The notes beneath the pieces are model-generated. The model saw only the letters and a list, made by a program, of their open reading frames with translations. It had not been told where the DNA came from and did not search any database. This document shows positions 41 through 34,921 of a stretch of 35,350 nt of DNA, in pieces (within the stretch, counting starts at the first letter, position 1; each line of letters starts with the position of its first letter). This stretch comes from Psammoneis japonica. Its lineage: Eukaryota. Where the stretch lies: positions 248,001 through 283,350 of the forward strand of contig QPGO01000110.1 of assembly GCA_008632985.1 (NCBI GenBank). The letters run 5' to 3'. The position numbers and the translations under genes were made by a program.

Positions 41-448
41 AATGTGTTCCAGCTCTCTAGCCAGGTGGGACCTTGCACTGCTGAACTGTGACATCAACAG
101 TTTTTTGGATCATGTCGCACGTTGCACACGCACATTTTTATGTGTGATGTTCTGCCAAATTGTTTCATGCTCCCTGTTTTGCAAAGCCAAAGGCTTTCTG
201 TTTTCAACATTTTTGAGAGAACAAAAATGCACTGGGTGCATTCTTTAATGTCTGTGAAACACACCCGGGCAAACTGTCAATGATGTGCTCCAAGTGTGAA
301 GGAGGAGATGCGTTCGTAACACTGCCTCTTTTTCTGTTGGCAGTCATCATTTGCATTTTCATTGCTTGACAAATTTGCTGCGGAGCTCGCACGTAGAGCT
401 CCATGGACCAAATGTCACACGGAGTCCCGCCTGAAGCTGGAACCTGTT
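41..448 (+). mobile_element. Degenerate ~400 bp MITE (family A, GACGCGTTCCAG-type termini)
   Basis: Ends AATGTGTTCCAG...CTGGAACCTGTT, flanked by a TGAC duplication (37-40, 449-452). Internal blocks (CATTCTTTAATGTCTG, TGCTGCGGAGCTCGCAC, ATGTCACACGGA) match the copies at 14563, 26479 and 29547. Confidence 0.75.
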
Positions 449-452
449 TGAC

Positions 453-2800
453 AAAGGCGGCCGGCTTGTCTGGTGCATTCTTGCCCACAGACACAACCTG
501 TTTTGCACTGCACGGCCGAATTGCCGTGACACCTCCTGAGCCAGAATTTTGTCACCATGACAAAACCACGGCTGCTGGTGACATGCTCTTTTGTTGTGGT
601 GACTGCTCAACAAGACGTTTGCTTTCCCTGACACCACTTGCACACTTGACAACAGAAACCAAGAGGTTTGCATCAAGCAAGTCACATTCCTTGTTGTGCA
701 CTTTCCACGGGCTCAGGAAGCATCAGTGCTGATGCTGTTTTTTTCTCTTCAGCTCCCATCATGGCACAACCCAACACATCTCACTTGAAGATGGTCATCT
801 CCATTGCCATCAACTGGAGCCTGCCACCACTGGCATGTCTGCCAGCTTTGGTGCTCCTCTTCCTGTGGGAGTGACAACAGACAAATCATCCACGCCCTCT
901 CCCAACCGCAAGCAAGATCCTCAGAGGAACCATCACAATGGTGTCTGACTTTGCCCTTGCATCTGCCATGTGAAAAAGAAGAATGCAAACAGAGTGTGAA
1001 GGACTTCATTGATGCTGCTGATCAAAAGAGATGTGTTGTCATCATTGCCTGTCTTGTGCCAACAACAGGAGGCCACGTGGAAGTGGCAATGTCAAGAGCA
1101 ACAACATGAGGGAGGTGTCCTGCATCCTGCTGTCACCTGTTTTGGAATTCTTGTTCACCACCTGAATCTTCCGGCATTCATTGATGGAAAAACATTGATT
1201 TGGGACAGACACCATGCAAGTCTGTGCTGCTCTTGATCGCTTGCTGTGCAGCGAGAAAACTGATTCAAGCGGTGGCCTTTTGATGACATGGTCAGCTCCA
1301 ACTGGTTTTGCATTTGAGCACTTGGGTCTCTTTTTGGACAATGCCCTGAGAATCGACTGTGGAAGGCAGTTGACCCAAACAGCATTTTGTTTGCCAATGA
1401 GCCACACCAGTGTTGCATGACATTGGCAGTTGTGCTGTTGTAAGATTGCACACTGAAGCTGCTCCAGTCAGCTGCAAACACTCTGTCAATGACAACGGCG
1501 GGGACCCAAGACAACCGACATCATGTTCCAGCTCTGTGACAGAGCAGCCCCAATCAAACACTGCTGAAATCAACTCTTGATTCTTGTTGCCAAACTCTTC
1601 CAGATGAGAAGCCCTGTCATGTGACCCCCAACAAAGCAAAGGACAACCACAATCTCAATTTGGATCATGACAAATGTCACCGCAACAATTTCCAAGCTTC
1701 ATCTCATGCTGCTGCATTGTCAACCAGGCATTCAAACAATGTGGAATGGGAGTTTTTTGCCACCTCCATCAGTTGCGACAGATTCAACAATGCACGCTGA
1801 AACTTCAAATGGGGGCTGAGGCAACACAAACCCCGAGACAATGGTTTGAAGACTCTGCCTCCTTTTTGCAACTTTGTCTCTTGCTGCAAGTTTTCTGACT
1901 TTCTCACGAGCTTCCTTCTCTGCTTCACCAGCTTCCTCGACTGCTGCAAAATTTTCCTTGACTTTCTCATGAACTTCCTTTTCTGCTTCCAGCATTTCTT
2001 GAGAGCTGCAACATGCGCTCTCATTTTCAAGCATCAGCGGGAGACTTCTCGTCTTGTTGGGGATGTTGCTGGAAGGAGGTGACTCCTCATCAACATGTTT
2101 GCATTGCCTTGAGACTGCCTTTGACACATTTTGCTCATGTCCAGAGTGACTTCTGTGGCAGAAAGTGAGTGAAACAGTGCAGGAGTGTGTTGTGACAAAT
2201 CAGCAAAAACAAAAGAAAGAGCGCAAGACTCCAGGAATGGTTGAAGCATCTGGTTGCCAGCATTGATGTTCCACCAGATTCCATCCTGTGGACGATGAAA
2301 ACAACAACACCCTTGACACATTGGCGTCCATGCATGTGACGTTGTTTCAGCAACAAAGTGCGACAGTTGATGGTGGCACATGTCCGGTCACACAGGTGGC
2401 TCAGAGTTTGTGAAAAAAAGGAAGAGGAAAAGGAGGAGGGGAGAGAAAGGGTGCAGGTTCAGAGTGTGCGCACGATGGCCAGACTGATGGTGATGACTGA
2501 AAATTTTCAAATTTTTTGTGCGATGACTCGTTTGCATTTTTGGAATGTTGTTGCAGCTGCATTGATGTCAACAGTGACCAACATCAACAGCAGAAGCTCT
2601 CATGTCTCCAACAAGGTGTCAACTGTGCCAACTGATCCTCGAGTTGGAGAGAATGTGAAACAGTGTTTTTCTTGCTTTTGCCGCACTTTGCCATGTAAAA
2701 ATCAGCAGAGTGCAAACAATGCACACCTTCTTTGCCGTGAAACTGAGGTTGCATTTTGAAGCACAACAAGCTCTGCATTTTTGTCCTTTCAATTTGTCTG
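453..2800. repeat. TpA-depleted degenerate block, probably TE-derived, with coding remnants on the minus strand
   Basis: About 7 TpA in the first 2.8 kb (count by eye). Many overlapping Cys/His-rich, Tyr-free ORFs and no recognisable intact domain. Confidence 0.5.
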
Positions 2801-5593: not shown

Positions 5594-7397
5594 CTAATTA
5601 TCTTCTTTCTCCCACGCATCCGCCACTACATCCCATAACGTTCGGCACAACAACAGCTGCTTTTCGTCAAAGTCACGAGGGAGCTTGTCGGGATGAAGAA
5701 AGAATTTGAGCTTCCGTACGGCTGCAAAACAGGCTTAAGATGAGAACTGTGGTGCAACGCGGTTGAACATTTTTAACGATAGAGAATGAAACTCACCTCG
5801 TTTGAGGACCGCTGGATTACTAGACGACAACGCATCTGAGGAATATGCTTTGTGTTTGCCAAAGTATTCATGGGATTCAATCCCATAGGCTGGCGGAAAG
5901 GTTGTGTGAATCGACGCCAAGAGCTCTTGAATCGGCCTTAGTTGTTGAAACGCCGGTGGTTGTAGAGCCCACGTGGTTAAAATCTGCTTTTTCACATCCG
6001 GCTGCTCCACGTTTGCTTCCTTGGAGGCGTTTTCAGATTTCAATAAATTTCCAGCATGAGCAACGGACGGCTGCTGTGTCTGAGACGACGAAGGACGTTG
6101 TTGGCGATTTTGAGAAGGATACATTGGCGGCGGACTGGTTGACGAAGAATGCTGCGCATAATGTTGTGGTGTTGTAAATGGTGAAGGCTTCGGTCGAGTG
6201 CTGTGCATGGCTCGAATTAAGTCAACATTGATCCATGGTGTAACGGTCCTGGTAATGGGGTTCCACTGTGGGCGTTCTTGTGCCATGGTTGCCTGCAAGG
6301 CGTTCAAGAAGCCGTTCAAGTCGTTGGTAGGGGTTGAGAGACGCGGTCCATTTGCACCAAAGAGCAAATTGCAAAACTCGCTGACTTCTTCTAGGGTCAA
6401 TGCGCGTTCGTCAAGTGTATCCAAGAGAGGAATGGTGAATCCCATTTCTCGCATACGATGAAGCGGGAGTCCATACGTGAGCCACGGATTGCGAAGATAC
6501 ACCTCAACGCCTTCACCAAAGAAATCATCTAGTACATCGTAGCCGAGATTCAAATTGGCATCGAGTGAATTGTAAAAGTCAAAAACAGACTCGTCATCTG
6601 TACAGAGTCGTACTACAATCCATACGGGCAAGGTTTGAAATTGCTGCAAGCTCTGCACAAATTCTTGAATGACCCGAGGGCCACTCTGCCCCTGGTTGTC
6701 GGTGGGCAAGCCCTGTGTAGCCAAGACAATGGTTGCTCGTTGTCGGTTCTGTTGTAATTGCGGGGCTATGGATGATAGATAACGATGAATCTTTTGAAGA
6801 TGCAACGATAGAGGGTTGGGTCCAGCCGGTTGGAGCGTTGTCATGGTTTGCTTCAAGACTTGCATTTCACTTGCAATGTTGTTGTTAGCTTCGCCTACAC
6901 CAAAAACAGGAGGGCCACCATTAATTGGAGGATTCACCAAGGCAAATCGTGTAGGTAGCGGTAGTACCGAAGCAGCTTGAGCATGATAGGCAACACAATC
7001 TTGCAGCTCCCGCCATCGAGTCGCTGGAGCTTGAGACGGCTCCAAGTGAAGAAAATCCTTTCCAGTGATCAAGTGTGCATCTTGAGCAAGCATAAATTGA
7101 CTATTGTCCAGAATCCATATTCTTAGGGGTGTCGAATCTGCATGATTTCCCAATACATGAATTAACCCTGCATGATAATAGGTCGGTTATTAGTCTTCTC
7201 GAATCGTGTATAAGAATGCAATAAGGGCGAGATCATCAGAGAGTTGTCTTTCGAGTCAATTTACCTGTTGGAAAGCCTTGTTGTCACAAGTATTGGACTT
7301 GATTTTCATTAAGAGCTGAAAAAGTAGTAGAACTATGGGCATTGGGTTGTTGTTGGTTTGCTGCGGCCAGCGGATCAAAGGCGTTTAGATTCGCCAT
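5594..7397 (-). CDS. vWA-like domain protein with C-terminal HPD-containing (DnaJ-like) helical region; 3 exons (7397-7265, 7167-5797, 5721-5594); in-frame TGA in exon 1, so possibly a pseudogene or null allele
   Basis: GT-AG introns 7264-7168 and 5796-5722 join the frames. Motifs IWILDNS, IVLATQGLPTD, WIVVRLCTDD, DVLDDFFGE and LKFFLHPDKLP. TGA at 7284-7286 in QYL*QQGFPTG. Confidence 0.75.
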
Positions 7398-7574
7398 GGC
7401 CGCTTCTCTTTTTGTGTGCGATGTGCGATGCGATAGATGCGTGCGATGCGAAAGGCGCGAGCTCGTGCGTTTTCGCGAGCTCCGAAACACACAGACGACC
7501 GAAGTAGGTACGTGTTCGGTAACTTCGAGCAAAACAAACAGACACAAAGACAACTCGCACAGCACCACTCTCAT

Positions 7575-7850
7575 TGACAGGATTTGAACAGGATTTAGGT
7601 GCGCGCGAAGCATCGCGCGCTGTTTAGTTTACCGTGCACAGTTTTGTGTGCTTTAGTTCCGCGCGTTCACGCGCGATGTAGTTTGCTTTCGAGCCACAAG
7701 GCTCACAAGAATAATAACAGTAGCCCGATTATACCGACTCACACGTCTTTCGGCTCCTGTAACGGTCTCTGAGCGGAGACTCATCTGCTATTTAGACAGC
7801 AGTAAGGAGTTATTGTTTGAATTCTTGCCATTTGCCTTCATTTTCTGTCA
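7575..7850 (+). repeat. 5' LTR (276 bp)
   Basis: TGACAG...CTGTCA; direct repeat of 13911-14186 with 10 substitutions. Confidence 0.97.
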
Positions 7851-7861
7851 GATTAACAGTC
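7851..7861 (+). promoter_or_regulatory. Putative primer-binding site complementary to a tRNA-Asn(GTT) anticodon arm
   Basis: GATTAACAGTC directly follows the LTR. Its reverse complement GACTGTTAATC has the form of tRNA positions 30-40 with a GTT anticodon. Confidence 0.5.
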
Positions 7862-8793
7862 TTGCTCATTGTCAACCCATTGAGCAACCGCCATCGTCGT
7901 CGTTGATTTACCAACGACGGTATTTTTAATTCTACGTGGACCTCCGTATATATTCTACATACATCGGCAAGTCTACGCGCATTCAATACCAGGGCATCGG
8001 CAGGAAGTTAACGTCACCGTCAAGTCTCCTTACCGCTGGATATCTGGATTGATTATACTACCTTTGATCGCTGAAGACATACATTCAACGGTCATATCCA
8101 AGTCTATCCTTGATCCTCATCCCTTGATATACCTATTCATCGGTTAACGGTCAAGAACCCTACATATTCAAGGATCTTCGTCGCTGAAGACATATATATA
8201 TATACACATCTTCACGGCCAAGAACCTGTACCCACTCTTTGGACTGCGGTTTTGCTGCCACTCTACAAGCACACCGAGTCCATTGTACCTGATCTACCCC
8301 GGACTGCTGGTGCTCTGCAGTTCCACTAGGTCCACGAGGACGACTGTGAGAGCAAGCAGCCGTGATTGCAGCCTGCGTTGGGGCGAGGGTGCTTTCCCGC
8401 GTTTGTTCGTTCGTCCACAGTGCCTGACGCCTGCGTCAACTGGCCAGCCTGATCGGGAAATCCAACCGACATAAAATGAGAACGGTTCGGGGGTCTTGTC
8501 CACCTCTGGTCAGCTCACCTGCAGGGGTTTACAACCCGCTGCTCCGCTCGCAAGCAACCCAAAGCGCCGCTGGCTGCGGGTTCGGACGTGCCGGCACAAC
8601 TCTACGGACCGGATGGGAAGTTTAGCACTCAACAACGAACGGGATGACAAAGCCCGGCGACTTCTGATTTTAAGACAGTTCAAGATTTCAAGTCAAGTCC
8701 ATTTCAAGTCAAGTCCATTCTCACCCAAGTTTCGAGTCTGCCTTCGCTTCCCAACCAGAATTGATTGTCCTGACACCATTTTTTTTGTCTGCC

Positions 8794-10350
8794 ATGGTTC
8801 TCACTCGTCAGCAACAAACCGATGGTTTCGAGCACGTGGTTGGAACCGTGCTTGCCCAAGGTGCTGGGAGTCCTCTTCGTTTGGCTTTGGCCCAAGACGG
8901 CACGGACTCATGTCAGGAACTGTTCACGTTCATGCCGTCCCAAATCGACTCGCTTGAGTGCGACAACGGCACCAATGCAATCCCTTTGCCCCATGGTTAT
9001 AAGAACATGTCAGCAGCACCAGTCAGTCTGTACATTGTTAAAGCACACAAAGGTCTTGACGTTGCCAACGACTCCTCTTTGTTCATGCATGACGAGTTCC
9101 TTGCCTGCCGCCTCAGCCCCGACTGCATGTCTTCTGTGTCCATCGGCAGCTCACCCCTTGCACCTCCACATGTCACCAACCCGACCAAGGCACGCGACCC
9201 GGTGCGGGACTTCAAGCGAGGCATCAAGCGTGATCCCACCGCTTTCACGGCTCTCAAATCCGACAAGCAGTGGCACACTTGGCACACCTCACTTGTGGCA
9301 CAAGCCCGTGCCCAAGACGTCGAGTGCATTCTAGACTCGTCGTACAAACCGACCAGCCCCGAAGACAAACTGCTCTTTGCTGAACAGCAAAAGCACATGT
9401 TCGCCGTCTTCGAACGCATCCTTCTCACCGACAAGGGCAAGGCTCTCATTCGTGAAAATGTGGGGTCTTCTGACGCACAGACCGTCTGCCGCTCCTTGTC
9501 TGAGCACGCGCTTGCCTCCACCCGCGCATCCATCGAGTCCTCCACCCTGCTCACGCACCTCACCACCGCACGTCTTGGTGATGGCACTTGGAAAGGTCCG
9601 ACCCACGGGTTCATCCTTCATTGGCAAGATCAGTTGCGCAAGTGCGAGGCACTCATCCCGGCCAGTGACCACTTCTCTGAAGGACAGAAGCGCGTCATGC
9701 TCGAGAATGCCGTGCACCCTGTCGAGGAACACCGTGCTGTCAAGAACCAAGCTGATCAGCATCGTACGCAGAGTGGCAAGAGCCTCACATACGATCAACA
9801 CTGTGGCTTGCTCCTCTCCGCGGCAGCTCAGTGCGACAGCACGTTTCAACCCAAGACGACACCTCGAGCTCCCCGACGCGCCATGTGCGCACACGACGTC
9901 CACTCCGAGGAACCATCCGACGATGTGTTCTGCGACATTGACAGCGACGTTGACGTCCTTCAAGCCAATGCTGCCTGCACCCGTGGTCCCAGCCTCACCG
10001 GTGTCCAATGGAGACGTCTCCCTCCCGACCACCAATGGCTCTGGGATTCGTTGCCCGATTCCTCCAAGGCGATCATCCTTGAGCATTCCCGTCCACCTCC
10101 CCGCAACCCGCGAGCCAGCAACTGCCATGAGTCTGTTACGGCCAACCTTCACGACCAACACCTTGGGAGTGACGGTGATGTCAACTTGTCCAACACGACT
10201 CCTGCTGACTCTGGTGACTCCGCCCCACATGTGGACGCCACTTCGGATGGTCCCATCCTGGCGCACCTCACCAAGCGCAAGCCACTGCCACCCGGTGATC
10301 CGCAACGTCTGTTGTCTCCTGACCAAGCCCCCAATGCGACCTTGCACTGA
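8794..10350 (+). pseudogene. gag: Copia gag (mutated; truncated before the protease)
   Basis: CoDi-type gag motifs FKRGIKRDP..F..LK.DKQW..W, ARAQDVE.ILD, LF.EQQK.MFAVF, ILHWQDQLR, MLENAV. Tyr almost entirely replaced by Cys or His. Confidence 0.85.
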
Positions 10351-13300
10351 CGCCGAATGGGACACCCTGCCCCATGTCATCCTCACCGGTGATGACACAT
10401 GGGACCCTTCCGTCCTCGATCACTCTGTCACTGACGACGACCAGTGGCACGACGTGATCTCTGACCTGCAGGACGATCCCACTGCCAACCTGTTTGACGA
10501 ATGCGGCAACTGCCGTCATCGTGTCGTTGTCAATGAGACCATCTTGTCCGCTTCCTTGTCTGCCGATCACGCGTCCGCCCTCGATGATCACCTCATTCCG
10601 AACGACGACGTGTTCTGCGAGTGTCATCTGCATGCGATTGGCCCCCAGGGCGATGACGTTCCACCTCCGGAGCGCACTGCACAGCCCAAGGACCCCCCCT
10701 TCGAGTCTCTTCGGCCTCACTTTGGCTTCCTGCCTGCCGACACGGTCCGTCGTACTTTTGACTGCACCACGCAGTGCGCCCGCATGCCCGCCGGCACACA
10801 CCTTCGCAAGGCCTGCAAATCACCCAACCCCGCCCTTAATGTGCACCGCCGCAACGAGCCTGTCGCCACTGACACCGTTTGTGCCGACACCCCGGCCGTC
10901 GACTCTGGTTGCACCAGCGCCCAACTGTTTGTTGGCACCGAGTCTACCGTCACTGACGTCTGCGGCACTGAGACGGACAAAGAGTTTGTCAACACACTCG
11001 AGGATCAGATCCGTGAACGTGGTGCCCCATCCAAACTCATTGGCGACCGTGCTCAAGTTGAGATCAGCAACAAAGTGCTCGGGATCCTGCGCGCCCTCTT
11101 CATCTCTAGCTGGCAAAGTGAGCCTCACCAGCAACACCAAAACTTTGCCGAACGTCGACACCAGACCGTGAAGCGCATGGCGAACACTGTCATGGATCGT
11201 TTTGGTTCGCCCGCCCATGCATGGCTGCTGGCGCTCATGTGCGTGTGCTTCATGCTCAACCATGCAGCGTCCCCACGTCTCCACTGGCGCACGCCCCTCG
11301 AGACTCTCACTGGCTCCACCCCGGACATCAGCCCGTTGCTTCGCTTTCATTGGTGGGAACCCGTGTGCTTCCACCTCGATGACTCCGATTGGCCGTCCGA
11401 ATCCCGTGAGTTGCGTGGACGCTTCGTTGGCATTGCTGAACACGTCGGCCACCAGATGACCTTCAAGATTCTATCTGACGAGACTCAGAAGATCCTCTGC
11501 CGGTCCAACGTCCGCTCCGCTGCCCCCGATCCTGCCGTTCGAAACCTGCGTCTTGATCCTCCTGATGGGGAGCCACCTGAACCCATCATCAAATCTCGCC
11601 ATGACGACAACCCCGTCGACTCTCCTGATGGGGAGATCAGGACACCCAAGATGCCAGTTTTCGATCCGCAAGACATCATTGGACGTACCTTCCTCATGCA
11701 GCCACAAGAGGATGGACAACGCCACAGAGCTCGCATCGTCAAGGCCGTCGAAGACCACGAATGGAAAGTGAACGACAATCCCGAGCTCACTGAGTTCGTC
11801 TGCTCTGTCAACAATGACGAATACGAGGAAGTCCTTGCCTGCAATGACATCATGAATCACATTGAGCAAGAAGACGAAGACACCACTGTTTGGAAATTTC
11901 GACGCATCGTGTCGCACGAAGGACCTCTGAAGCCTCATGACCCAACCTGGAAAGGCTCAAGCTACAACATCATGCTTGAATGGGAAAGTGGGGAGATCAC
12001 GTCCGAGCCTCTTGCCATCATCGCCAAGGACGACCCCGTCACCTGTGCCATCCATGCACGAGAGAACGGACTCCTCGACACGGATGGCTGGAAGCGGTTC
12101 CGCACCATCGCGAGGCGCCAAAAGAAGCCATTTCGCATGGCCAGCCAAGCCAAGCTTCGCTCCTTCCGCACTGCACCTCGCTACAAGCATGGACACAAAG
12201 TTCCCCGGAACTACAAACACGCCATGTCACTGGACGAACGCAACGGCAACCGCAAGTGGGGAGACGCAACTAATCTCGAGATGGACCAACTCGACGAATA
12301 CGAAGTCTTCCATGACTGCGGGCCCTTCAAGTCTTCCACTCCTCCTGCGGGACACAAGAAGATCCGAGTGCACCTGGTGTGCGACGTGAAACACGACGGT
12401 CGCCACAAGGCACGACTCGTAGCCGATGGGCACCTCACAGACGCACCTGTCGACAGTGTCTGCTCCGGAGTGGTCTCCCTCCGTGGCCTTCGGCTGATGA
12501 TTTTCCTGGCCGAACTCAACGAGTTGGAGACATGGGCCACCGACATTGGCAATGCCTGCCTTGAAGCCACCACCAAGGAGAAGCTTTGCATTGCAGCTGG
12601 ACCCGAGTTTGGCAAACTCGAAGGACACATCCTTGTCATCCACAAGGCACTGCATGGACTGCGCAGCTCCGGTCTCCGCTGGCACGAGCGCTTCGCCGAC
12701 TGCCTGCGAGCTGAAGGCTTCTTCCCCTGCCGCGCCGAACCCGACATTTGGATGCGCAGGAATGGCGACCACTGTGAATGCATTGCCGTTTATGTGGATG
12801 ACCTCGCCATTGCCATGAAGGACCCTCAATCTTTCGTCGACACTCTCACGGAAAAGCACAAGTTCAAGCTCAAGGGTGCGGGACCCATTGAGTTCCATCT
12901 GGGTTGCGACTTTTCCCGGGAACCCGACGGAACCTTGTGCCTGTCTCCGCGCAAGTACATCGAGCGCATGGTCGACAGCTGTGCCCGACTGTGTGGGGAG
13001 AAACCTGCCACCAACGCCCTGTCACCTCTAGAGAAGGGTGACCACCCCGAACTGGACACTTCCGAACTGCTGGGACCCGATGGCATTCACAAGTTCCAGT
13101 CTCTTGTTGGTTCACTCCAATGGGCAGTGTCCCTTGGTCGAATTGACATTGCCACGGCCGTCATGTCACTCTCTAGCTTCCGAGCTGCGCCCCGTCAAGG
13201 CCACTTGGATCGTGCCAAACGCGTCTGTGGGCACCTCTCCAAGATGCGACACGGTGCTCTCCGCGTTCGTGCGGAAGAGCCCGACCATTCGGATCTCCCT

Positions 13301-13963
13301 GCTCCGGCCTGTGAATGGATGCATTCCGTGCATGGCGAAGCAGAAGAGATGATCCCGAAGGACGCTCCACCGCCCCTTGGCAAGTTCGTCACTGCCACCC
13401 ACTACGTCGATGCAAACTTGTGCCATTGCATGCTCACCGGACGCTCTGTCATGGGAATGCTCCACTTCCTCAACAAATTCCCGGCTGATTGGTTCTCTAA
13501 GAAACAAGCCACCGTGGAGACTGCGACCTGCGGGTCTGAATTTGTTGCCGCAAGGACTTGTGTTGAGCAGATTGTCGACCTGCGCATCACCCTGAGCTGC
13601 CTTGGCGTCCCGATCCGTAACGTTAGTTACATGTTCGGTGACAACAAGTCGGTTGTAGACAGTGCCACCATCCCGCACTCCAAGTTACACAAGCGACACA
13701 CCGCACCATCGTTGCACCGTGTGCGTGAGGCAATTGCCTCTGGTTGCCTTGAGCTCCACTTCATTGAAGGCTCCCGCAACCCTGCTGACATTCTCAGCAA
13801 GCATTGGGGTTGCTCCCAAATCTTGGACCTTCTCCGCCCCCTCATGTTCTGGAACTTCATTCCATCCGAAGTCGAATCTGTTTCTGTGGCTCCTCAAGCA
13901 AACTGGGGAGTGACAGGATTTGAACAGGATTTGGGTGCGCGCGAAGCATCGCGCGCTGTTTAG
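10334..13963 (+). pseudogene. pol: Copia pol: integrase, reverse transcriptase and RNase H (open frame, heavily Tyr to Cys/His mutated)
   Basis: Integrase VATDTV, SEPHQQHQNFAERR; RT HKARLVADG, DIGNACLEA, KALHGLRSSG, YVDDL; RNase H YVDAN, ETATCGSEF, GDNKSV, NPADILSK. Confidence 0.93.
13905..13910 (+). promoter_or_regulatory. Polypurine tract
   Basis: GGGGAG immediately 5' of the 3' LTR. Confidence 0.7.
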
Positions 13964-14186
13964 TTTACCGTGCACAGTTTTGTGTGCTTTAGTTCCGCGC
14001 GTTCACGCGCGATGTAGTTTGCTTTCGAGCCACAAGGCTCACAAGAACAATGACAGTGGCCCGATTGTGCCGACTCACACGTCTTTCGGCTCCTGTGACG
14101 GTCTCTGAGCGGAGACTCATCTGCTGTTTAGACAGCAGCAAGGAGTTGTTGTTTGAATTCTTGCCATTTGCCTTCATTTTCTGTCA
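13911..14186 (+). repeat. 3' LTR (276 bp)
   Basis: Direct repeat of 7575-7850, followed by TSD CTCAT. Confidence 0.97.
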
Positions 14187-14227
14187 CTCATCAACAACTG
14201 TCGTTAGGGTTTTCTATCCTTGGACAA

Positions 14228-15070
14228 CCCCACTTGTGCACAGATGGTCTCCAGAGACCATCTGTGCACTGTCGCCTGCACAGATGGTCTCCAGAGACCA
14301 TCTGTGCAGCTGCATTAAATTCTGCGTGTTTGCACCAGGAAAATGCACCTCCAACCCATCCGGCACGCTCGAGCAATGTTCCATGCACGAGAAAGAAATC
14401 GTTGGTGCAGGCGAACAACATCACTCTACGATGCGACTGGTGCAAAATCTACGTAAATGCACAGATGCGCTCTGGAGCATGTCTGTGCAAATTCGAGCTC
14501 GCAATTCTTGTACATAAAATGTTGCTCACGCCTGCCGGATGGGTTGGAGATGCATTTTCCTGGACGCGTTCCAGCCCCAGGTGGGAGCTCACAGCACTGA
14601 CGTGTGACAACAATGATTTTTGTCATCCGTCGCATGTTTCGTGCGCAGATTTCTGCGTGTGACATTTAAAAAAAATTGTCCAGACTCACTGTTTTGCGAA
14701 GCCCCAGACGTTTTACATGACAAATTTACAGAAACAACAATGCGCCAGTTGCATTCTTCAATGTCTGAAGAATGTAACTGGCTGAGTAAAAAATGATGCA
14801 CTTCAATCATGTGCGAGTTTGTGCGTTCGCAAAATTGCCTCATTTTCTGTTGGCGATCATTGACATTTTAAGTGCCGTGTGATTTTGCTGCGGAGCTCGC
14901 ACTCAGAAGTCTGCGGGCCCAATGTCACACGGATTCCCACCTGCGTCTGGAACGCGTCCCTGGTGCAAACACGTGGAATTTAACGCAGCTGCACAGATGG
15001 TCTCTGGAGACCATCTGTGCAGGCGACAGTGCACAGATGGTCTCTGGAGACCATCTGTGCATGAGTGGGG
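14228..15070. mobile_element. Foldback non-autonomous DNA element with ~140 bp TIRs and CCCC...GGGG ends (piggyBac-like), interrupted by a family A MITE
   Basis: Left arm 14228-~14367 is the reverse complement of ~14533-14562 plus 14963-15070. Each arm has two TGCACAGATGGTCTCnnGAGACCATCTGTGCA palindromes. Flanks ACAA and ATGA can both derive from ATAA. Confidence 0.8.
14563..14958 (+). mobile_element. Family A MITE, 396 bp
   Basis: TIR GACGCGTTCCAG..CAGGTGGGA / TCCCACCTG..CTGGAACGCGTC; 4 bp TSD CCTG. The empty site is visible in the opposite arm of the host element. Confidence 0.9.
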
Positions 15071-15186
15071 ATGAGGAGCAGGGATGAGGAAAGACAAGGA
15101 AACCAGATGAGGAAAAATTAATTGTGGCAATTTGCCGCGCAGTTGCGACTGGCATGGCCCTTTCATGTGGCGGTTGACTTGTCCAG

Positions 15187-15576
15187 GACGGGTTCCAGTC
15201 CTGGGTGGGACTCCGTGTGACATTGGGCCCGCAGAATTCTACGTGCGAGCTCCGCAGTACGAGAATTTAATTGATGGATACACTCATCTTCAACATCAAA
15301 TAAACTGCCAAGTTTGTGGTGCAATTTTGCCTCTTGCCACTCGACGTTTTTGCAAATGCGCCTGCCCTGCGCGATTCTTAAGACATTGTAGAATCGCGCT
15401 GTGACAAAAAATGTCAAAAGTTGTTGGATGGATCGCTCAATAAGTGTGCCGTAAAATGTCACAAAATGTCGAAAAAATCACGTAGAAATCTACGTGCGCG
15501 ACATACGACGTGATTCAAAAAACTGTCGATGTCACAGTTCAGTGGTGCGAGGTCCCACCTAGACCTGGAACGCGTC
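15187..15576 (-). mobile_element. Family A-related MITE, 390 bp, inverted, with a divergent interior
   Basis: Ends GACGGGTTCCAG...CTGGAACGCGTC, TSD CCAG (15183-15186, 15577-15580). The first ~70 bp are the reverse complement of the family A right end. Confidence 0.85.
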
Positions 15577-16219
15577 CCAGAGCCCATGGCTGCTGAAGCA
15601 CTTTAAACACTGCATTCAATGAGCAAGGTGGACGCTGTTGGGGACCACATTCTCGGCGCGATTGCCCCACCTCGTCGTGACCGCAGCGAAAATGCCATCG
15701 TCGGGAGACCAACAGAGAGCATGCCTTTCGTCGTTGACCACTCCTCCAAACGCTGACTTGTGACTTTTTGTTGAATGCGCATTGTCAATGTGGGGCTCCC
15801 TGAGCTTTCTCTGGACACCCGCATTGTCCATCGTCGACAACGGCTGTCACGACGAACGACGAGTTGATGATGCATGGTGCCATGGTGCTTGCGAGTGTGG
15901 TGTGTGGTGTTGTTGGCAAGTGGCGCGCGAAAAAGCAGCTCAATCGCGCCATCGGTGACGTCATAATCTACGTAGAATCTACGTAGGATCCTAGTGCAAA
16001 GATTTTTCCTTATCTTCTTCCTTTATCTTGTGCTACTGTAACCGCTTCCTTACGATAGAAAACCCTTACTATCGTGTATAAAAACAGCAACAGCAAACAT
16101 CACACTCTGCTTATTGATTATGGTCCGGTATGGTCGCGGTAGGGCTAGGGTTACATCATTCAATCATACACAGACCCCCCTTTCTGACTGTGCTGTAGCT
16201 TCTTTTTGAAAGAGTCACA

Positions 16220-25615: not shown

Positions 25616-26334
25616 GATGCCAAGTGTCCATGCTCTCTGTAGCATAGCATCACAAAAAACGAACAAGGCACTCATTGCGTAGCCTACACAGGCAAACGAT
25701 AAACGATAGAATCCACCGACTCGCACGGAATGTGTGCGCGACTCCGTCAAGAGCAACACCTCAAAACCGAGTGGATTCCAATGTATCGTGTAAAGCTTGG
25801 CATGCTGTTGTGTAACGGACATTGGCAACGGTCGGGGTTCAGGTAACCGATGTGACGTGGTGTCGGAGGGAATGTTCGATGAACGTTCCTCCAATGGCGC
25901 TCACTTGTTGCAAGCAGTTGTGACAGGCCTCAGAGTGTCTTTGGATCGTTGTGTCGTCATCATGCGCCAGCACTGCGAGCAGCTGAGCGCCCTTGCTTTG
26001 TCAGAGCCAAGTTTCCGCACTCCACGGTTTGGTGATTGAAGCAACAACCAGCGTGGTTGCAGCGGCCATTGTCTTGTTGGCATGGTTTTGATGACGAATG
26101 CTGATCAACCTGGGGCTGTTCATGCCAATGACAAGTGATGCCTTTGCATCAGTGTGTGCGCAAAGCAGTGGGAGATGCGGCCACATCTCCGTGCTCTCAT
26201 GGCTTGCATGCATCGTCGGCACAATTTGTGAATGTCAGTGTTTTGACGTGCTTCTTCCAACACAACTGCACCCTTTTTGATGCTCTCATGACCTTGGATT
26301 TTGCCATGGCGGCAAACCCTCAAACCCGATGGAG

Positions 26335-26478
26335 GACGTGCTGACATGTGACACAAACAATTTTTGTCATCCGTCACATGTTTCGCACATGCATTTCTGC
26401 GTGTGATGTTCAAAAAAAAATTGTCCAGACTTGCTGTTTTGCAAAGCCCCAGATGTTTCACATGACAAATTTACAGGA
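26335..26478 (+). mobile_element. Family A MITE fragment
   Basis: Matches the left third of the family A interior (TGTGACACAAACAATTTTTGTCATCCGTC...CATGACAAATTTACAG). Confidence 0.75.
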
Positions 26479-27265
26479 GACGCGTTCCAGCCCCATGGCG
26501 AGTCAGAATGAAAGCTGTGTTCCGCCCGAAGCTTCCGCGTGCAACAGGGGGGGTGTCAAAATTGCCCATTTGTCACAGCACGTAGAATCTGTGCAGGTTC
26601 TTGCATTGACCTTGCTGTGGGCACAGTCAGCAAACAACCTGACAATCACAGCATGCAGGGCCTGCGCAGGTCCTGGCATTGAACCTCTTGTCAGCGCATG
26701 ACCTGCGTGGTCACGGCTGCAGCTTTTGGCAGTCGATTCTTCCCGGGACTGACTGGCAACGAACTGACTGTCAGCACAGAATTTGCACCAGGTGCTGTGG
26801 AAGCTGTGATTGGCAAGTGGGCTGTGATCCAGAAAGGAGTGTGGAACCTTGAAGGGGGGGGAGGGGGTGGAGGCGGAACACACAATCAATTCGGACTCGC
26901 ATGGGTGGGAGCTCGCAGCACTGATGTGTGACACAAACAATTTTTGTCAGATCCGTCGCATGTTTCGGGTGTGCATTTCTGTGTGTGGCACTCCAAAAAA
27001 ATGGTCCAGACTCACTGTTTTGCAAAGCCCCAGACGTTTCACACAACAAATTTGTGGAAAAAATGATGCACCAGCTGCATTCTTCAATGTCTGAAGAATG
27101 CAACTGGCTGAGCAAAAAATGATGTGCTTCAATCATGGACGAGTTTGTGCGTTCGCAAAATTGCCTTATTTTCTGTTGGCGATCATTGACATTTTCATTG
27201 CCTTGCAATTTTGCTGCGGAGCTTGCACGCAGAATTCTGCACGCCACCTGCATCTGGAGCGCATC
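26479..27265 (+). mobile_element. Family A MITE split within its left TIR by a second insertion
   Basis: GACGCGTTCCAGCCC at 26479 resumes as GGTGGGAGCTC at 26904 and ends CCACCTGCATCTGGAGCGCATC at 27265. Confidence 0.85.
26496..26901. mobile_element. ~405 bp MITE nested in the family A TIR
   Basis: Imperfect TIRs GCGAGTCAGAAT..TGTGTTCCGCC / GGCGGAACACA..ATTCGGACTCGC. Flanks CA and TG sit at a site that is TA in the TIR copy at ~15560. Confidence 0.7.
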
Positions 27266-27289
27266 AGAGACAGCCCTCACCTGGATTGG

Positions 27290-27720
27290 TTCCCACCTGC
27301 AGGTGCAGCGCACCACAATTGTGACCAACACTGCAGTGTTTGATGATGTTGTCAACGTGAAGGAGTTGGATGTTGACACTCTTGTGCAGTCCTGTTCAAG
27401 GAGGGCTGCAGCTGAAAGGCATTTCCACTCTGGATTGGCCCACACCCATCACCCAAAGTCCGTTGTCCATTGGGTGCAGGACTTTCAGCATGTTGGTGGC
27501 ATGGATCGAACAAGTTTTCTGGATGCGCTGTCTGCCGCGTTGACCAGGGCCAAGATTCACAAACTTCCAGATTGAGGACCAACCCAAGTCCACTGCTTGT
27601 GGGGCATCCCCCAGACTCTTGGAAAGCAAAAACAAGTGGGCAAAATGGAGCACCGCCTTCTAGAACATGCTTGGCGTGACATTGGGCATGGATGGCATTC
27701 TGTTGATCCACATTGCATCA
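27290..27720 (+). pseudogene. Fragment resembling a gag N-terminus from a second copia family
   Basis: RHFHSGLAHTHHPKSVVHWVQDF..SFLDALSAALTRAKI..ASPRLLESKNKWAKW resembles diatom copia gag N-termini (recognised from memory, not searched). Confidence 0.5.
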
Positions 27721-28254
27721 GAGGCCGCAGCACAGTGTCATTCACTTTCTTTTGGAAATTTTGGGACATTCAACCGCACAAAAGCACGTCATCATTGTTC
27801 AACCTCAATTTCAATTTCAACAGTCAAGTTGAATTTGTTGTTTCCTTTTCATGTGTGCAATTGTTGCCTTTTTGTTTTGATTTGAATTTGCCAAAGACTT
27901 TCAACCTGCATTTCATGTTTTTAAAACAAGTTTTGTTTTGATGAATTTGTTGCATGTTCATGGAAACGTCAGCTTTGACAGTGCTTTTCAACAGCTCCAC
28001 TGCAGTCTTGCCATCACCACAGACAATGGCATTTCTTCCATGCCCAAGTTGGCCACATGAGTGTCTGGCTCATTGTTTTCACCTGTGCCCACCAGCCCTC
28101 CATTCAATGGCTCCCTGCCTGCATTTTGGTGCATTTTCTGCATGCGCAATGCTCTGCCCATTTCATGACAGCACACCCTCTCCCCAAAATGCATTTGACG
28201 AGAGGGTGCACTGTTGTGATTCCTGTGCATTCCACGTGAATCAGCAACTGACTG

Positions 28255-31200
28255 TTGGCCATGGCGGCTGGTGACTTTACCCCATCTGACAACAAGGTCG
28301 ACCCTGACCCTTCTTTCCAAATTTCTGAGGACTGTGATTTTGATGAAATGGAACATTTCACCAACGGCTTTGGATTCGAAGTGTTCCAACCCAAACTCAA
28401 AAGCACAGCTGCAATGCATGCCTCCAAAAAGCAGTTTTTGGAGATGACAAATTGGACCCCCTCTCCAGAATTCCTTGCTCTTCCCTTCCTTTGTCACAAG
28501 CCGAAGCCACGTTGTGTTCCACATGTTGCCGAAGTCATCCATGCCAACGACATTGAAAGGAAAACTCTTGGCTGTCCCCACATTTGGTCCTGCACAATGA
28601 CTCGATGTTGGCCCACTGAGAAATCTCGCTGAGTGAAAGGCGAACATGTCCTGCGATGTAAAAATCTCAAGGAGGCTCTCCATTTCTCCAAAACATCCAG
28701 AGAGACAGAAAAAGAACAGCAGAGCCGCGCGCTTCTCCACCGTGACATCCAGGCGATGGTGGAATTTGTTTGTGCGATCATTGCTGGAGACGACCCAAAT
28801 GATCCCGCATCTGGTTGGCCTTGTTTCCGATTTTTGCGTTGCAAAAGTCTCCAAAGTTTGATCAACGATCGAGCCCAAGACCTCCACAGTGCACATTTTG
28901 TCACTGACATTGTCACGCGTCATGTTCAGTGCAAACCCAAGGACATGGACCATTGGCTCCTCAAGATTTGCCGTCATGTCAACACCCAAAAGGAATGGCG
29001 CCTCTTTGTCAACAGCTTTCTGGTTGCATGCGATGCCAATGATCCTGGTTCTCAGGCGGACAAGATCAAGGGGTTCCTTGGTGACCAAACCAGCAACATC
29101 AAAAACACATCTGTTGTCTCAAGGCCCCTCCTCACACCCCATGATTGCACACGCCCCACCAGAGCTTTCCTTGACCAAGGCCAAGCCTGCATCTTGCTTG
29201 AAGACCAGCACCTCCTTTGTTGTCTGGCAATGTGCCGTCATCTGGGGAGGCGCGCCGGACTCTCACTGCCAACCTTCCATCACTCTCAGAAATGATGGAA
29301 AACCGAAAACCTGCTCCTGCCTCCAAAGGTCCTTTGTCCAAACTGCGCTCCTCTCCTCCATCTGTTTTGGCAAATGTTCCTGTGGTTGCATCTCCTCCCA
29401 GCAACCCCAACGACATGTCGTGGATGGACAAGTCCACACTCCACGATCGCTTTGACCCGCCCAAGTGTCGGCCCACCACCACCGAGGAAGTTGCTTCTCA
29501 TTTGTCACACCTGCACATCATTGACAAAGCCATCGGCACTGATTGAGACGCATTCCAGCCCTGGGTGGGAGCTCTCAGCACTGGCGTGTGACACAAATGA
29601 TTTTTGTCATCTGTCGCATGTTTCGCACGTGCATTTCTGCATGTGACATTTAAAAAAAATGTCTGGACTCGCTGTTTTGCGAAGCCCCAGACGTTTTGTG
29701 TGACAAACCAATGGAAACAACAGCGCACCAGTTGCATTCTTCAATGTCTGAAGAATGCAACTGGCCAAGTAAAAAGTGATGCACTTCAATCATGGGCAAC
29801 TTTGTGCGTTTGCAAAATTGCCTCATTTTCTGTTGGCAATCATTGACATTTTAATTGCCACACAATTTCAGTGCGGAGCTCGCACGTGGAATTCTGCGGC
29901 CCCAATGTCACACGGATTCCCACCTGCATCTGGAATGCATCTCGAGTGCCTCATCATTCCGCCACCGACTTTTACCTGGCGGACACCTTGTGGGAAAACT
30001 GGCACACATTCTCAAACAAAACTCCTTTGTGTGATTCCGCCACTGCATCTTGTGTCCAAACCGAGTGCCCTCCTGACCTTGATCACTTCTCCGAGGAACT
30101 CTCTGTTGCCTGACAAGCCAACTCTCTGCACAAAGGGCACTTTGGGTGCCTTTGTGTGTGCATTCCCACCCTTCTTCTGTTTGTTCTGTTGAAGGGCAAG
30201 TCCAATTTGAGACGTGACGGACCGGCTGCAGCTTTGAATGGCAAAGGACGCAGGACAAAGTTCGGTTGTGCAGGGCAAGCGCACCACCCAAAGTTGCCGG
30301 GCTCTGCCAAACTTGCTGAACCCAAGGCTGCCTGTTGACTTCATGGTTTTGAGTCGATGACAACTTTGATGCAAACAAGTCATCCAAAATCAAGGCAATG
30401 GCAGCCGACATCCTCGACTCGATTCAGCTGTGCAAAAATGAGGTGAAGCTGTGGAAACTGAGCAATCCGCCACCATTTGACTGGCTGCCATGGTGCGAGG
30501 AGTGCTCGAATCAGTTGGGCAACAAAATGGACTGTCTTTTCTTTAAACGCAAGGACATCGCCATGCAGGGATTGTGCATTTCCCGGGGTCAAGTCTGTGA
30601 TGGTCACCATGACAAAAAAAAACTGCACCTGGTGTTGACACAGGAAGACAGCCGCAGGTTGCTTTTTTGTCATGGATGCCTTTGGTGACATCTGGTCCTT
30701 CAAGGTGGTTGCCAACAGCAGAGCCACCATTGGCGAACACTGTGATGACCAGTGCGACATGAAGCCTGTGCTTGCTCGCATGCACCACAATTGAGCTCAG
30801 CTTGATTTTGCACTTAAAGACTTGGACTTGCAGCACAATGGTCCCACCCACCCAGATGTGTTGCTTGCCAGCAGTGCGTTCAAGCATCTTTCCCTTGACA
30901 ACAACAGGCCATGGGACAATGTTCCAACTGGCGGAGGGGGGCAATCTTCGCACGTTGAGGTGTGCATGGACTGGCTCAAGTTCCCGACATTCCCAGTCAG
31001 GGACTTCCACGAATTGGGTCGTTTGACAAAATCTGTGTCGCCAGGTGGGATGGTGCACTCTGATGACAGGGGTGTGGCTTTGATTGAGTTTGAGAGCAGC
31101 AAACACGCGGTTGACCCTCACCTGCGCTGCGACTCCATGGACCTGTTTTGCATGTTGAATGATGACGACATCCAAGAAAAGTGGGAGGAGCTGTGGAAGA

Positions 31201-33607
31201 AGAGGCGCAACCACATGGTTTGGGTGCAAGACCATGTGAGGGATTGGAGCGGTGAAGCAATTGAGCACGTGCACGCCAGCACACACATGTTCTCAACTCA
31301 CAATGACCTGCCCTGGGTGAGCGGCGTTGTCAACCGTGGGACAAATGCTCGCCAGTGCAAGGAGCATTGGGGCTGCATCACGACTCACCAAGACAGGCAA
31401 GGAGGGTGCACTGGGTCAACAGCACTGGCCACAATGAAGGAGAGAAAGAGCTGATGGATGACTTTGCAGTGGGTGTGTGTGATGATGCAAAACTGGTCAT
31501 TGACAGGGGAGACGTTTCAAGATTGAGACAGAAGTCGAGCGTCAGCTTGCCGACTTGTGGAGTGGATGAGACAGGCACTTGCAGACCATTGGGAGAAACA
31601 TCAGCAAGGGGAGGCTCTTGCAGACCAGCGATGGACAAGAAGGACATTGTTTGCGATGCACTGAAACTGGCAAAGTGGCTCCAGCATGACATTGTGCGAG
31701 ACTGCCATGAAAGACTTTGGCTCTGTGAGGAAATGGAGTTCCTCCTGTTGTCTCCAAGGAGAGTCAATGAACGGACACTGGACATTGTCGCAAAGGAGGA
31801 TGGTGAGTGGGAGAACTTTCACACAAGGAGAGAGGAAATGCGCTGGGTGGAGAGACGTCATTGCGCTGAAGTTGACGAATTTGTGAGAGTGGTCGGAGTG
31901 GAGACGAGGGCTTTCACCAGCATGACTGGTTGTTCCGACGTCGGGCAATGCAGCAGGTTTGGAGTTACAAGGTCAGAGGGAGATGACAAACTGGACCAGA
32001 AAAAACGATTTGGCACCAAAAAGGATGGATGTGCTTGGGCCCCAACAGCAAACCGGAGCGTCGTTAAAGCAGGTGAGGGGTTTGTTCATTGCAGCAAAAG
32101 TGGAATGCTTGTGCACGCCATTTGCGCTGTGGAAGTGGATTTTGACATTGCAGCAAAAGAGAGGTTTGAACTGGAATTCGCAGGGATTCAAAATTTTCAA
32201 AAGACAACGAGGAGTGGCAAAACAAACAAGTTGCACACACATCAAAAGATTTGGTTGATTCTCCATTGTGTTGCATTTGAGAAAAGAGAACCGTTGGTGG
32301 AAAGCATGAGATTTTTTGAAAATTTCCCAACGGCAAAATCAGCCAGGGACACAAGGCATGGAGCCACCCACAATTGGCAACAGCAGCACAGGCAATGGCG
32401 AGGAAGAAGAAGAAAGAAAGTGCGGGGGTGGCTGGAGATCAACCAACCAGCCCAAGGCTGGCCGCGGCGTTGGCGCGGGTGGGAGCCACTGGGGATCACC
32501 AGTTTGCAAAGAGAGAGGCAGAAGAGGTGGCGCAGAAGGAACTTTTCCCAAAGGCAAAGTTCCTTGTCAAGGCGGACATGGCAAGCAGTGGCAAAGTGTC
32601 GCGGCTCATCAGGAAAAGACAGCCGGCGGCAATTGCAGCAAGCAAGACTGGGCAGGAGCATGGGAAGACTGGGCAAAGAAGTGTGCCGCACGCTCAATTG
32701 ACGCAAAAAGGAGTGCGGTCACTCAGGCGATCAAGAACAATGCAGCGACTGGTGAGTGTTTTGTGGTGCACGGCGTGTTGAGCGCAGCTGCACTCAACAC
32801 TGCTGCACCTTAATTTGCTGAAGTCGTGTTGACAGAGAATGAAGCCGAGGAGATGCGCAGTCAGAAGAAGCCAGCAGCAAGAGGCAGAGGAGGGAAGAAG
32901 AGCAAGAAGAGGAAGAAGAATGATCACACAGTGGATGAAGAGCCGTTCCTGGCAACTTGGGAGGAGGAGACAGCTGCAACGATTGTGGAGGACAAGCGCA
33001 AGAACAAGGAAGCACATGCTTGGTTCTGCGAAAACATCCTGAAATTCACAAAGAGCACCACGACATGGAGAAGGAAGGTGGAGTCGGGTGAGACGAAGGC
33101 AGCCGGTCTGGCTGCAGTGAGCGACGAGGCTCTGGGGCTGTTGACGCTGGAAAACTGCTGGAAGAGTTGGGAGCACAAGGCACGTCATGACAAGGCTGTT
33201 GGAGCAGAGGCTCGGATGAAAAGGATGAGGAAGAGTCAGAGCCAACGCCCAAGCACATGGACCCGTCAAGGCAACGCGACTCGTGGAAGGATGCAGGGAC
33301 GCTGCGATTCAACGAACTGCTCGCAGAAGCAAAGAAAGACAGGTTGAGTGAGGAGGGCATGCAGTTTGACACATGGCACAGCGAAGGCAAGAAAAGGAAG
33401 AGTGACAAAAGAGGCAAGGGATTGAAAAGAGAGAGACAGCCAGTGGAGAAGGAGGCAAGTGCACAGGCAACGACAGAGCTTTCAAGTGACAACAAGGAGA
33501 AGGAGGAAGAGGAAACGGACAAGAACAGAGGAGACAAGGAAAGCGAGGAGGAGGATGAAGACAGCGATGTGGGAAGCGAAACGAGCGCAGATGCAGGCAA
33601 TGAGTGA
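28255..33607 (+). pseudogene. Degenerate subtelomeric multi-ORF element, probably a large TE remnant
   Basis: Long co-oriented Tyr-free coding stretches at 28255-29540, 30398-32280 and 32350-33607. The last has VSDEALGLLTLENCWKSW...SWKDAGTLRFNELLAEAKKDR, an acidic tail and a probable GTGAGT intron at ~32752. Confidence 0.5.
29547..29941 (+). mobile_element. Family A MITE, 395 bp
   Basis: GACGCATTCCAG...CTGGAATGCATC. Flanks TTGA and TCGA (4 bp TSD with one CpG transition). Colinear with 14563-14958. Confidence 0.9.

Positions 33608-34880: not shown

Positions 34881-34921
<41 letters not shown>

Follow-up and report, generated by a model that had tools for sequence, protein, structure and literature searches.

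Loss of TpA dinucleotides from a long terminal repeat retrotransposon, older repeats and a subtelomere of the diatom Psammoneis japonica

What kind of process could change one long terminal repeat (LTR) of an integrated retrotransposon at TpA dinucleotides only, and leave the other LTR of the same element as it was? This question is raised by a Ty1/copia-type element found at positions 7575-14186 of a 35,350-nucleotide stretch of the genome of Psammoneis japonica (GenBank assembly GCA_008632985.1, contig QPGO01000110.1, positions 248,001-283,350 of the forward strand). Below, this whole stretch is referred to as the window, and all coordinates are those of the window. A preliminary description of the element had listed ten differences between its LTRs, the 5' copy always having TA where the 3' copy has TG or CA, and had put forward a hypermutation that is targeted to repeats and turns TpA into TpG or CpA. 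The observation is larger than was noted at that time: three blocks of the window are affected, namely, 395-2696, about 8317-15600 (in part) and 25844-33930, and not the LTRs only (Table 1).

The LTR pair gives the most compact view of the change. According to a repeat search and a direct comparison, the two copies are direct repeats of 276 bp each, 96.4% identical and without indels, and they differ at exactly ten positions (eight A/G and two T/C), with TA always in the 5' LTR and TG (8) or CA (2) in the 3' LTR, so that 10 of 15 TpA have changed, as described before, and 5 remain in the 3' copy. Equally correct was the statement that everything else stayed the same: each LTR contains 20 CpG, none of which differs between the copies (0/20), and outside of TpA none of the 246 positions does. 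The probability that all ten differences would fall by chance within TpA, which accounts for 30 of the 276 positions, is about 2e-10. The same baseline is obtained empirically, since in 14 control pairs of LTR-like terminal repeats from related metagenome elements 13 of the 119 differences were TA/TG or TA/CA, and 41 were transversions. At all ten differing sites, the TA allele sits in one and the same LTR, the 5' one (two-sided p about 0.002). As a rough estimate, the pair has recorded ~1.1 hits per TpA versus at most ~0.012 per other site, which corresponds to an excess of roughly 90-100-fold or more. The matching 5-bp target-site duplication (TSD) and the TG...CA ends indicate that both LTRs belong to one insertion and not to a recombinant of two elements; inter-element recombination as the origin of the unlike LTRs is ruled out by the matching TSD.

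One further site of the LTRs deserves a separate mention. At 7740 and 14076, both LTRs carry CA, and most copies of the family carry TA (78,933 of 106,065 summed depth in sequencing run X1). Being common to both LTRs, this TpA hit predates the insertion and, hence, the process must have acted on the source copy before.

By itself, the LTR pair gives no direction, and the same ten differences could be read backwards, namely, as the result of a change of the kind known from repeat-induced point mutation (RIP), with CpA turned into TpA (C>T) in the 5' LTR and the 3' LTR retaining the ancestral state. The direction, assumed in the preliminary description, has now been polarised with outgroups, by comparing tyrosine (Tyr) codons (TAY) that are conserved in the family, as well as conserved columns of pol, with those of relatives. 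When aligned with 39 relatives, the window element has Cys (TGY, 15) or His (CAY, 7) in place of 22 of the 35 conserved Tyr residues, as compared to 0-2 such replacements per relative; when a real relative was used as the tblastn query, Cys (19) or His (8) was found at 27 of the 37 conserved Tyr sites of the window pol. In 77 of 80 related metagenome loci, the number of such sites does not exceed three. Thus, with conserved Tyr codons now encoding Cys or His in the window element, TpA was lost and not gained. The 568 conserved pol columns contain 64 substitutions in this element, namely, 22 TA>TG, 7 TA>CA, 2 other AT>GC transitions, 2 CpG transitions, 17 transversions, 13 multi-step changes and 1 ambiguous case; single TA>TG or TA>CA steps make up 29-30 of the 64 substitutions and 29 of the 33 single-step transitions. 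Nearly no class of transitions is raised in pol besides the loss of TpA. With ten out of ten LTR differences at TpA, and only two AT>GC transitions outside of TpA at the 568 columns, the strict specificity that had been claimed for the change holds beyond the LTRs. The reversed polarity, in contrast, has a negligible chance of being correct: Tyr is replaced by Cys or His at conserved codons in the window element only, the interior of the element and the other blocks are poorer in TpA and not richer (observed/expected ratio, o/e, 0.03-0.16), and most of the other family copies have TA where the window has TG or CA. The Tyr codons, the regional loss of TpA and the substitution spectrum of pol together reject a RIP-like origin, and the change indeed runs opposite to RIP, as had been proposed, in that TpA is lost and not created.

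The dinucleotide profile of the window reveals the same loss on a larger scale. The two fully depleted blocks taken together have 20 TA in 10,389 bp (TpA o/e 0.03), with TA-free gaps of up to 1255 bp. In these blocks, the o/e of CA and TG is 1.65 versus about 1.15 in the gene blocks, and the o/e of CpG is 0.49 versus 0.95; the gain in CA+TG equals the combined loss of TpA and CpG. The retrotransposon has lost ~70% of its TpA, with CpG still at an o/e of 0.91. The change at TpA accumulates to saturation and, in the young element, proceeds much faster than the decay of CpG (o/e of 0.91 for CpG as compared to 0.16 for TpA); the latter is a second, slower layer, which is confined to the old blocks. 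The depletion has also reshaped the stop triplets: on both strands of the 10.4 kb that make up the two fully depleted blocks, there are 28 TAA, 3 TAG and 483 TGA, and it is owing to this erasure of TAA and TAG that long, overlapping and meaningless open reading frames (ORFs) extend on both strands. A Pfam search with 55 stop-to-stop ORFs of the two blocks found no real domain, the DUF5742 match being below the threshold (17 bits, with a cut-off of 27.7).

The positions at which the affected tract begins and ends are informative with regard to the target of the process. The spared end of the element, ~740 bp in all, consists of the 5' LTR plus ~470 bp beyond it, and a minus-strand ORF (5735-7186) starts ~390 bp away from it; the tract of hits runs from about 8317 through the 3' LTR into the adjoining old repeats. 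Before the insertion, normal DNA directly abutted those old repeats that now lie 3' of the element. With its spared 5' end, its affected 3' part and the equally affected repeats next to it, the tract appears to follow a chromosomal domain and not the limits of repeats. One of the affected sequences is a Ty1/copia element, and the other blocks contain a repeat family but no recognisable domain; repeats are present in every affected block, yet the 5' LTR, which is as repeated as the 3' LTR, has escaped. As it stands, the epithet "repeat-targeted" is not supported by these data: ~740 bp of the element are spared although they are no less repeated than the 3' LTR, the edges of the tracts do not coincide with those of repeats, and a single-copy viral insert in the chlorarachniophyte Bigelowiella natans is reported to be hit as well (see below). 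Thus, a domain of the chromosome, and not homology between sequences, seems to be targeted.

The differing LTRs, the intact TSD and the involvement of DNA outside of the element, i.e., of its flanks and of the subtelomere, also indicate that the process acted on chromosomal DNA after integration, in accord with the earlier argument from the LTRs. Both strands were struck, again as claimed, since both outcomes, TG and CA, are found. The young element favours its sense strand, with TG:CA ratios of 8:2 in the LTR and 19:8 at the Tyr codons, and the old blocks contain TG and CA in equal measure. At the TAC sites, 12 have become TGC, 2 have become CAC and 6 have been kept; the TAT sites yielded 3 TGT and 4 CAT, with 1 kept. 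A rival possibility is that the changes were made before integration and not in the chromosome, either by editing of the retrotransposon RNA (UA>UG) with an ADAR- or ADAT-like activity, or by editing of the cDNA in the course of reverse transcription. A high-copy family whose copies differ by transitions would suit such a mechanism, as would the CA that both LTRs share at 7740 against TA in most copies, which means that some hits were inherited from a mutated source; besides, a 3' part that is hit together with the 3' LTR, next to a spared 5' end, is loosely reminiscent of the gradients produced by cDNA editing. However, an edit made in the U3, R or U5 of the RNA is carried into both LTRs, which here differ at ten sites, both strands are hit (8+19 TG versus 2+8 CA), and so is DNA that does not belong to the element, namely, that at 14187-15600, at 395-2696, in the 8-kb subtelomere and in the telomere-like repeats; in B. 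natans, as far as the main text of the respective preprint goes, the mutations appear in integrated DNA during culture. We therefore consider editing prior to integration very improbable. As to its particular forms, RNA editing before retrotransposition would put the edits in both LTRs and confine them to the element, and it was dismissed because of the ten differing LTR sites and the depleted flanks and subtelomere; APOBEC-type editing of cDNA, in which C>U on the minus strand appears as G>A on the plus strand, is ruled out by the A>G and T>C nature of the changes.

The chromosome end offers a separate illustration. The TTGGGG repeats at 33907-33930 look like telomere repeats after a TA>TG change, that is, they would once have been TTAGGG, with the telomerase-renewed repeats remaining intact. 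The terminal array contains a few TTATGG and other variants near its very end. Over the final 3 kb next to the telomere (31000-33930), the + strand shows a strong purine skew (GC skew of +0.25 to +0.31, AT skew of +0.13 to +0.35). With TG and CA being about equally frequent in this region, the skew is not explained by the TpA process.

Has such a process been encountered before? It has, in an unrelated alga, so that the system is not categorically new. Mettrop et al. (bioRxiv 10.64898/2026.01.13.699255, 14 April 2026) describe TpA-specific hypermutation of integrated DNA of nucleocytoplasmic large DNA viruses (NCLDV) and virophages in B. natans. According to the main text of this preprint, 231 of 302 nuclear mutations in mutation-accumulation lines fell into integrated NCLDV and virophage regions, 230 of these 231 mutations were A>G or T>C changes and affected TpA without exception, and the rate in the viral regions was ~1000-fold over background; the genome has 124 TpA-poor, CA+TG-rich clusters, the TpA-poor coding sequences are enriched in reverse-transcriptase and DDE domains, and the NCLDV region is single-copy (10.64898/2026.01.13.699255). 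To the extent of that text, the P. japonica window resembles the genome of B. natans in that the changes are A>G/T>C only and at TpA only, yielding TpG/CpA, that kb-scale regions are affected against a normal genome background (here within the window only), that long-term depletion of TpA is accompanied by a gain in CpA+TpG, that the affected sequences include reverse-transcriptase-bearing and unannotated ones, and that the rate excess is of similar order, roughly 90-100-fold or more here versus about 1000-fold there. There are differences as well. The host is a diatom (Stramenopila) and not a chlorarachniophyte (Rhizaria); instead of viral inserts, the process has hit an LTR retrotransposon, short repeat families and a subtelomere with telomere-like repeats; the depletion is near saturation (o/e 0.03), unlike that of the NCLDV region (Rho 0.45); the LTR pair provides a built-in proof of post-integration action, together with a tract edge inside one element; and what is known here is a footprint in sequence, whereas in B. 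natans de novo mutations were measured in culture. The main text of the preprint (10.64898/2026.01.13.699255) makes no mention of diatoms, stramenopiles, telomeres or retrotransposons. A full-text search of a literature library retrieved no report of the TpA signature in diatoms or stramenopiles, and no description of it other than the B. natans preprint; terms for such mutation were absent from the paper on diatom retrotransposons by Maumus et al. 2009 (PMC2806351) when it was searched for them. Accordingly, the earlier statement that no description of such a system was known stands for diatoms and has to be withdrawn for B. natans. New here are the diatom lineage, the LTR retrotransposon and subtelomeric repeats as targets, and the near saturation.

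Comparison with other known systems narrows the field further. As with RIP of ascomycetes, we are dealing with dinucleotide-specific transition hypermutation of chromosomal transposons that affects both strands, is regional, can saturate and inactivates coding capacity. Unlike RIP, which changes C>T at CpA, gives TpA and raises both TpA and AT, the process in the window removes TpA and increases GC; the trigger of RIP is a duplication, whereas one LTR of a pair is spared here, so that homology alone is not decisive; and RIP creates stop codons, whereas TAA and TAG are removed here, as is evident from the above counts. Deamination of 5-methylcytosine also ends in TpG/CpA and co-occurs with the TpA loss in the old blocks (CpG o/e 0.3-0.5), but it starts from CpG, and all of the 20 LTR CpGs are intact in the young element (20/20); with CpG unchanged in both LTRs, its decay is rejected as the cause. 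A preference for a 5' U or T is a property of fungal A-to-I mRNA editing and of TadA-derived base editors. Together with hyper-editing by ADAR, for which a 5' U preference is stated in the preprint (10.64898/2026.01.13.699255), these activities resemble the present case in the A>G change with its 5' U/T preference; they act, however, on RNA or are engineered, whereas the changes seen here have become part of the chromosomal DNA, and the LTRs of one insertion do not share them.

Taken together, the above data show, for the window, what the signature is, in which direction it runs, how specific it is, how it is distributed over regions and that it arose after integration. What they quite probably reflect is a region-directed nuclear process that converts TpA to TpG/CpA in the chromosomal DNA of this diatom and is of the same kind as that in B. 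natans. Such a process would bring about A>G transitions at adenines that follow a T, in both strands; it would strike silenced or foreign DNA, i.e., the integrated LTR retrotransposon, older repeats and the subtelomere, leaving the neighbouring genes alone, and its repeated rounds would push TpA towards zero.

Several points weigh against this interpretation. Our analysis, which deals with sequence only, revealed neither an enzyme nor a modified base nor a new mutation. The signature occurs in just 2-3 of 80 related loci and in 1 of 120 proteins, and is not general among relatives. Strand-coordinated runs of TG or CA were not detectable (z between -1.4 and +2.5, in a test that is diluted by native TG/CA), so that there is no support for processive single-strand tracts. 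Neither is there a clear flanking-base rule at retained versus mutated TpA, except for TTAA in the subtelomere, where 9 of the 19 surviving TpA lie within this motif. Double differences of the CA-versus-TG type between copies of the old ~400-bp repeat family (22 of 53) were considered as a hallmark of independent TA hits and then downgraded, because the decay of CpG yields the same pattern. By sequence alone, "A after T" is indistinguishable from "T before A", and a thymine-directed chemistry fits equally well. Finally, the read evidence consists of contigs from four runs of one sample in one study, which may be the assembly's own data, and these contigs check only one of the LTR sites, 7597, the other nine being outside the 40 listed of 251 differences.

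This last point leads to the question of whether the pattern could be an artefact of assembly, basecalling or polishing, either because a modified base in TpA was miscalled in heterochromatin, or because repeat copies were polished into a mosaic. The reads do come from one sample and are available as contigs only, the best run containing 64% of the words that were sampled from the stretch. In addition, the summed read depth of the element is three to four orders of magnitude above that of a 4594-nt contig from its flank, which makes the family a high-copy one and mosaic polishing possible. Nevertheless, this flank contig (depth 56), which leads from unique DNA into the 5' LTR up to 7599, matches the assembly with one difference (7286) and agrees with the A at 7597; the TSD matches as well. 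The read contigs themselves show both the TA and the TG/CA states at many sites: the copies of the family differ nearly only by transitions (224 transition versus 23 transversion places in run X1), and the 40 listed of 251 differences include 17 cases where the window has TG/CA and other copies TA, 4 cases of the reverse, and 3 adjacent CA-versus-TG pairs. The terminal TTAGGG array was called normally. Moreover, the signature is also present in contigs of two other metagenome projects and in one database protein. Of the 80 metagenome loci, two carry the Tyr>Cys/His signature, L054 (14/26 sites) and L029 (8/23), with TpA o/e of 0.31-0.33; L065 is borderline (4/23 Tyr sites), and the remaining loci have at most three such sites. 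P0097, with 11 of 40 Tyr sites, is the sole database protein with the signature among the 120 listed. L054, L029 and P0097 are copia-type and share ~67% DNA identity with the window element, which places them in other families or other hosts, and such a partial signature in data sets independent of this sample makes an artefact of the platform unlikely. Since, furthermore, an Illumina-based mutation-accumulation experiment, as presented in the main text of the B. natans preprint, demonstrates that such a process exists, we give hardly any weight to an artefact.

As for the chemistry of the region-directed process, adenine deamination, one of the mechanisms named in the preliminary description, remains a reasonable candidate. 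In our judgement, the chances are roughly even that adenine is converted to hypoxanthine in DNA by a deaminase of the TadA/ADAT2 type. Such an enzyme would recognise "A after T" on single-stranded DNA and deaminate it to hypoxanthine; the latter would template C, and the change would be fixed as G at replication. In the tRNA substrate of TadA and ADAT2, the target A34 always follows U33, and an enzyme of this type fits for this very reason. The sense-strand bias would be compatible with a single-strand-specific enzyme that works on the non-template strand. The authors of the preprint, too, propose DNA adenine deamination, with an ADAT2-like candidate, as a hypothesis (10.64898/2026.01.13.699255). 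Alternatively, a TET/JBP-type oxidase or another enzyme could modify the T of TpA, for instance to 5-hydroxymethyluracil or 5-formyluracil, which would pair with G and give T>C. Owing to the self-complementarity of TpA, T>C before A yields the identical TG/CA outcomes, and the proximal telomere-like repeats are, indeed, TTGGGG. 5-Formyluracil mispairs with G, and in the telomere repeats of kinetoplastids base J occupies the T of TpA. A thymine lesion is, nevertheless, unlikely: nothing in the window prefers it to the deamination of adenine, and the authors of the sole experimental precedent, in the main text of their preprint, favour an adenine deaminase.

The signal for targeting is probably the chromatin state, as suggested by the spared promoter-proximal end of the element, by the CpG decay in the old blocks and by the single-copy target in B. 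natans, as reported in the preprint. The process may serve in defence. More tentatively, and with somewhat less than even chances, a chromatin-directed adenine deaminase can be envisaged as a natural TA-specific base editor that forms an old layer of defence in distant lineages of the SAR supergroup (Stramenopila, Alveolata and Rhizaria), and possibly in others. Starting at the edges of silenced domains, it would extend across them and erase TpA, and with it the TAA and TAG stops and the Tyr codons; transposons, integrated viruses and subtelomeres would be hit, and internal TTAGGG repeats would be rewritten to TTGGGG.

The other features of the window can be described briefly. The interior of the retrotransposon yields an RVT_2 domain match (E=2e-24), and its polyprotein has 1132 homologues, which, among the 120 listed, are 58-70% identical and come mostly from marine metagenomes. 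The gag-PR and INT-RT parts are in separate frames near 10304-10317, the relatives having a single polyprotein of ~1850-1900 aa; the break may be a real frameshift of this copy or a homopolymer error. At position 10359, one base is missing from some of the contigs in runs X2 and X4. The ~400-bp repeat family, which may represent a solo LTR, a MITE or a satellite unit, has 68-86% identical copies in the TpA-poor blocks at 64-443, 14563-14966, 26341-26476, 26904-27240 and 29547-29949, and inverted partial copies lie just 3' of the retrotransposon (14225-14339/14959-15073 and 14888-14959/15186-15257). The normal blocks encode an acyl-CoA dehydrogenase, an S-adenosylmethionine (SAM) methyltransferase and a Fringe-like glycosyltransferase, and the genes of the window appear intron-poor. 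The best named matches of the acyl-CoA dehydrogenase ORF are only from Bacillariophyta (Phaeodactylum, Stephanodiscus, Thalassiosira, Seminavis, Nitzschia and others), the top matches overall reaching 66% identity. A domain search of the large window ORFs found no deaminase gene among them.

Table 1. Features of the 35,350-nucleotide window (PR, protease; INT, integrase; RT, reverse transcriptase; RH, ribonuclease H)
Feature	Position	Strand	Observations
TpA-free block	395-2696	.	1 TA in 2302 bp; TpA o/e 0.01; CA/TG o/e 1.7-1.8; CpG o/e 0.32; no Pfam domain
Gene blocks	between depleted blocks		649 TA in 14,975 bp; TpA o/e 0.61 (0.60-0.62 in the single blocks)
Target-site duplication CTCAT, left copy	7570-7574	+	5 bases before the 5' LTR = 5 bases after the 3' LTR
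5' LTR	7575-7850	+	unmutated state; 15 TpA; TpA o/e about 0.9-1.0; TG...CA ends
Leader / 5' interior (spared)	7851-8316	+	normal TpA density; first window-specific TG/CA versus family TA at 8317 and 8324
TpA-depleted interior, Ty1/copia-type (CoDi-like) element	8317-13910	+	TpA o/e 0.16; RVT_2 match
Element, depleted part	8451-14186	+	43 TA in 5736 bp; TpA o/e 0.16; TA density drops from about 8317
gag-PR frame	8833-10317	+	tblastn
INT-RT-RH frame	10304-13852	+	tblastn; frame break near 10310
3' LTR	13911-14186	+	mutated at 10/15 ancestral TpA (8 to TG, 2 to CA)
Target-site duplication CTCAT, right copy	14187-14191	+	same match as left copy
Flanking older repeats (~400-bp family and inverted copies)	14187-15600	.	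29 TA in 1414 bp; TpA o/e 0.32; partly depleted
Subtelomeric TpA-free block	25844-33930	.	19 TA in 8087 bp; TpA o/e 0.04; CA/TG o/e 1.6; CpG o/e 0.53; copies of ~400-bp repeat family; no Pfam domain
(TTGGGG)x4 adjoining N gap	33907-33930	+	equals TTAGGG after TA>TG
N gap	33931-34734		804 N
Terminal TTAGGG telomere repeats	34735-35350	+	TpA intact

To our knowledge, all directed DNA hypermutation known in eukaryotes until 2026 was due to deamination of cytosine, as in RIP, in the action of AID/APOBEC and in the decay of 5-methylcytosine. The same near-saturated footprint in a diatom suggests that the process that destroys TpA is widespread among ecologically dominant algae, be it by shared descent or by convergence, and its range of targets now includes LTR retrotransposons and chromosome ends, besides integrated viruses. 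The element described here amounts to a natural experiment, in which one insertion with one spared and one affected LTR points to action after integration and to regional, not homology-based, targeting. There are also practical consequences: ages of transposable elements that are estimated from LTR divergence are badly inflated in such genomes, and in TA-free DNA gene finders would call long false ORFs. The enzyme behind this process would be a natural DNA adenine editor.

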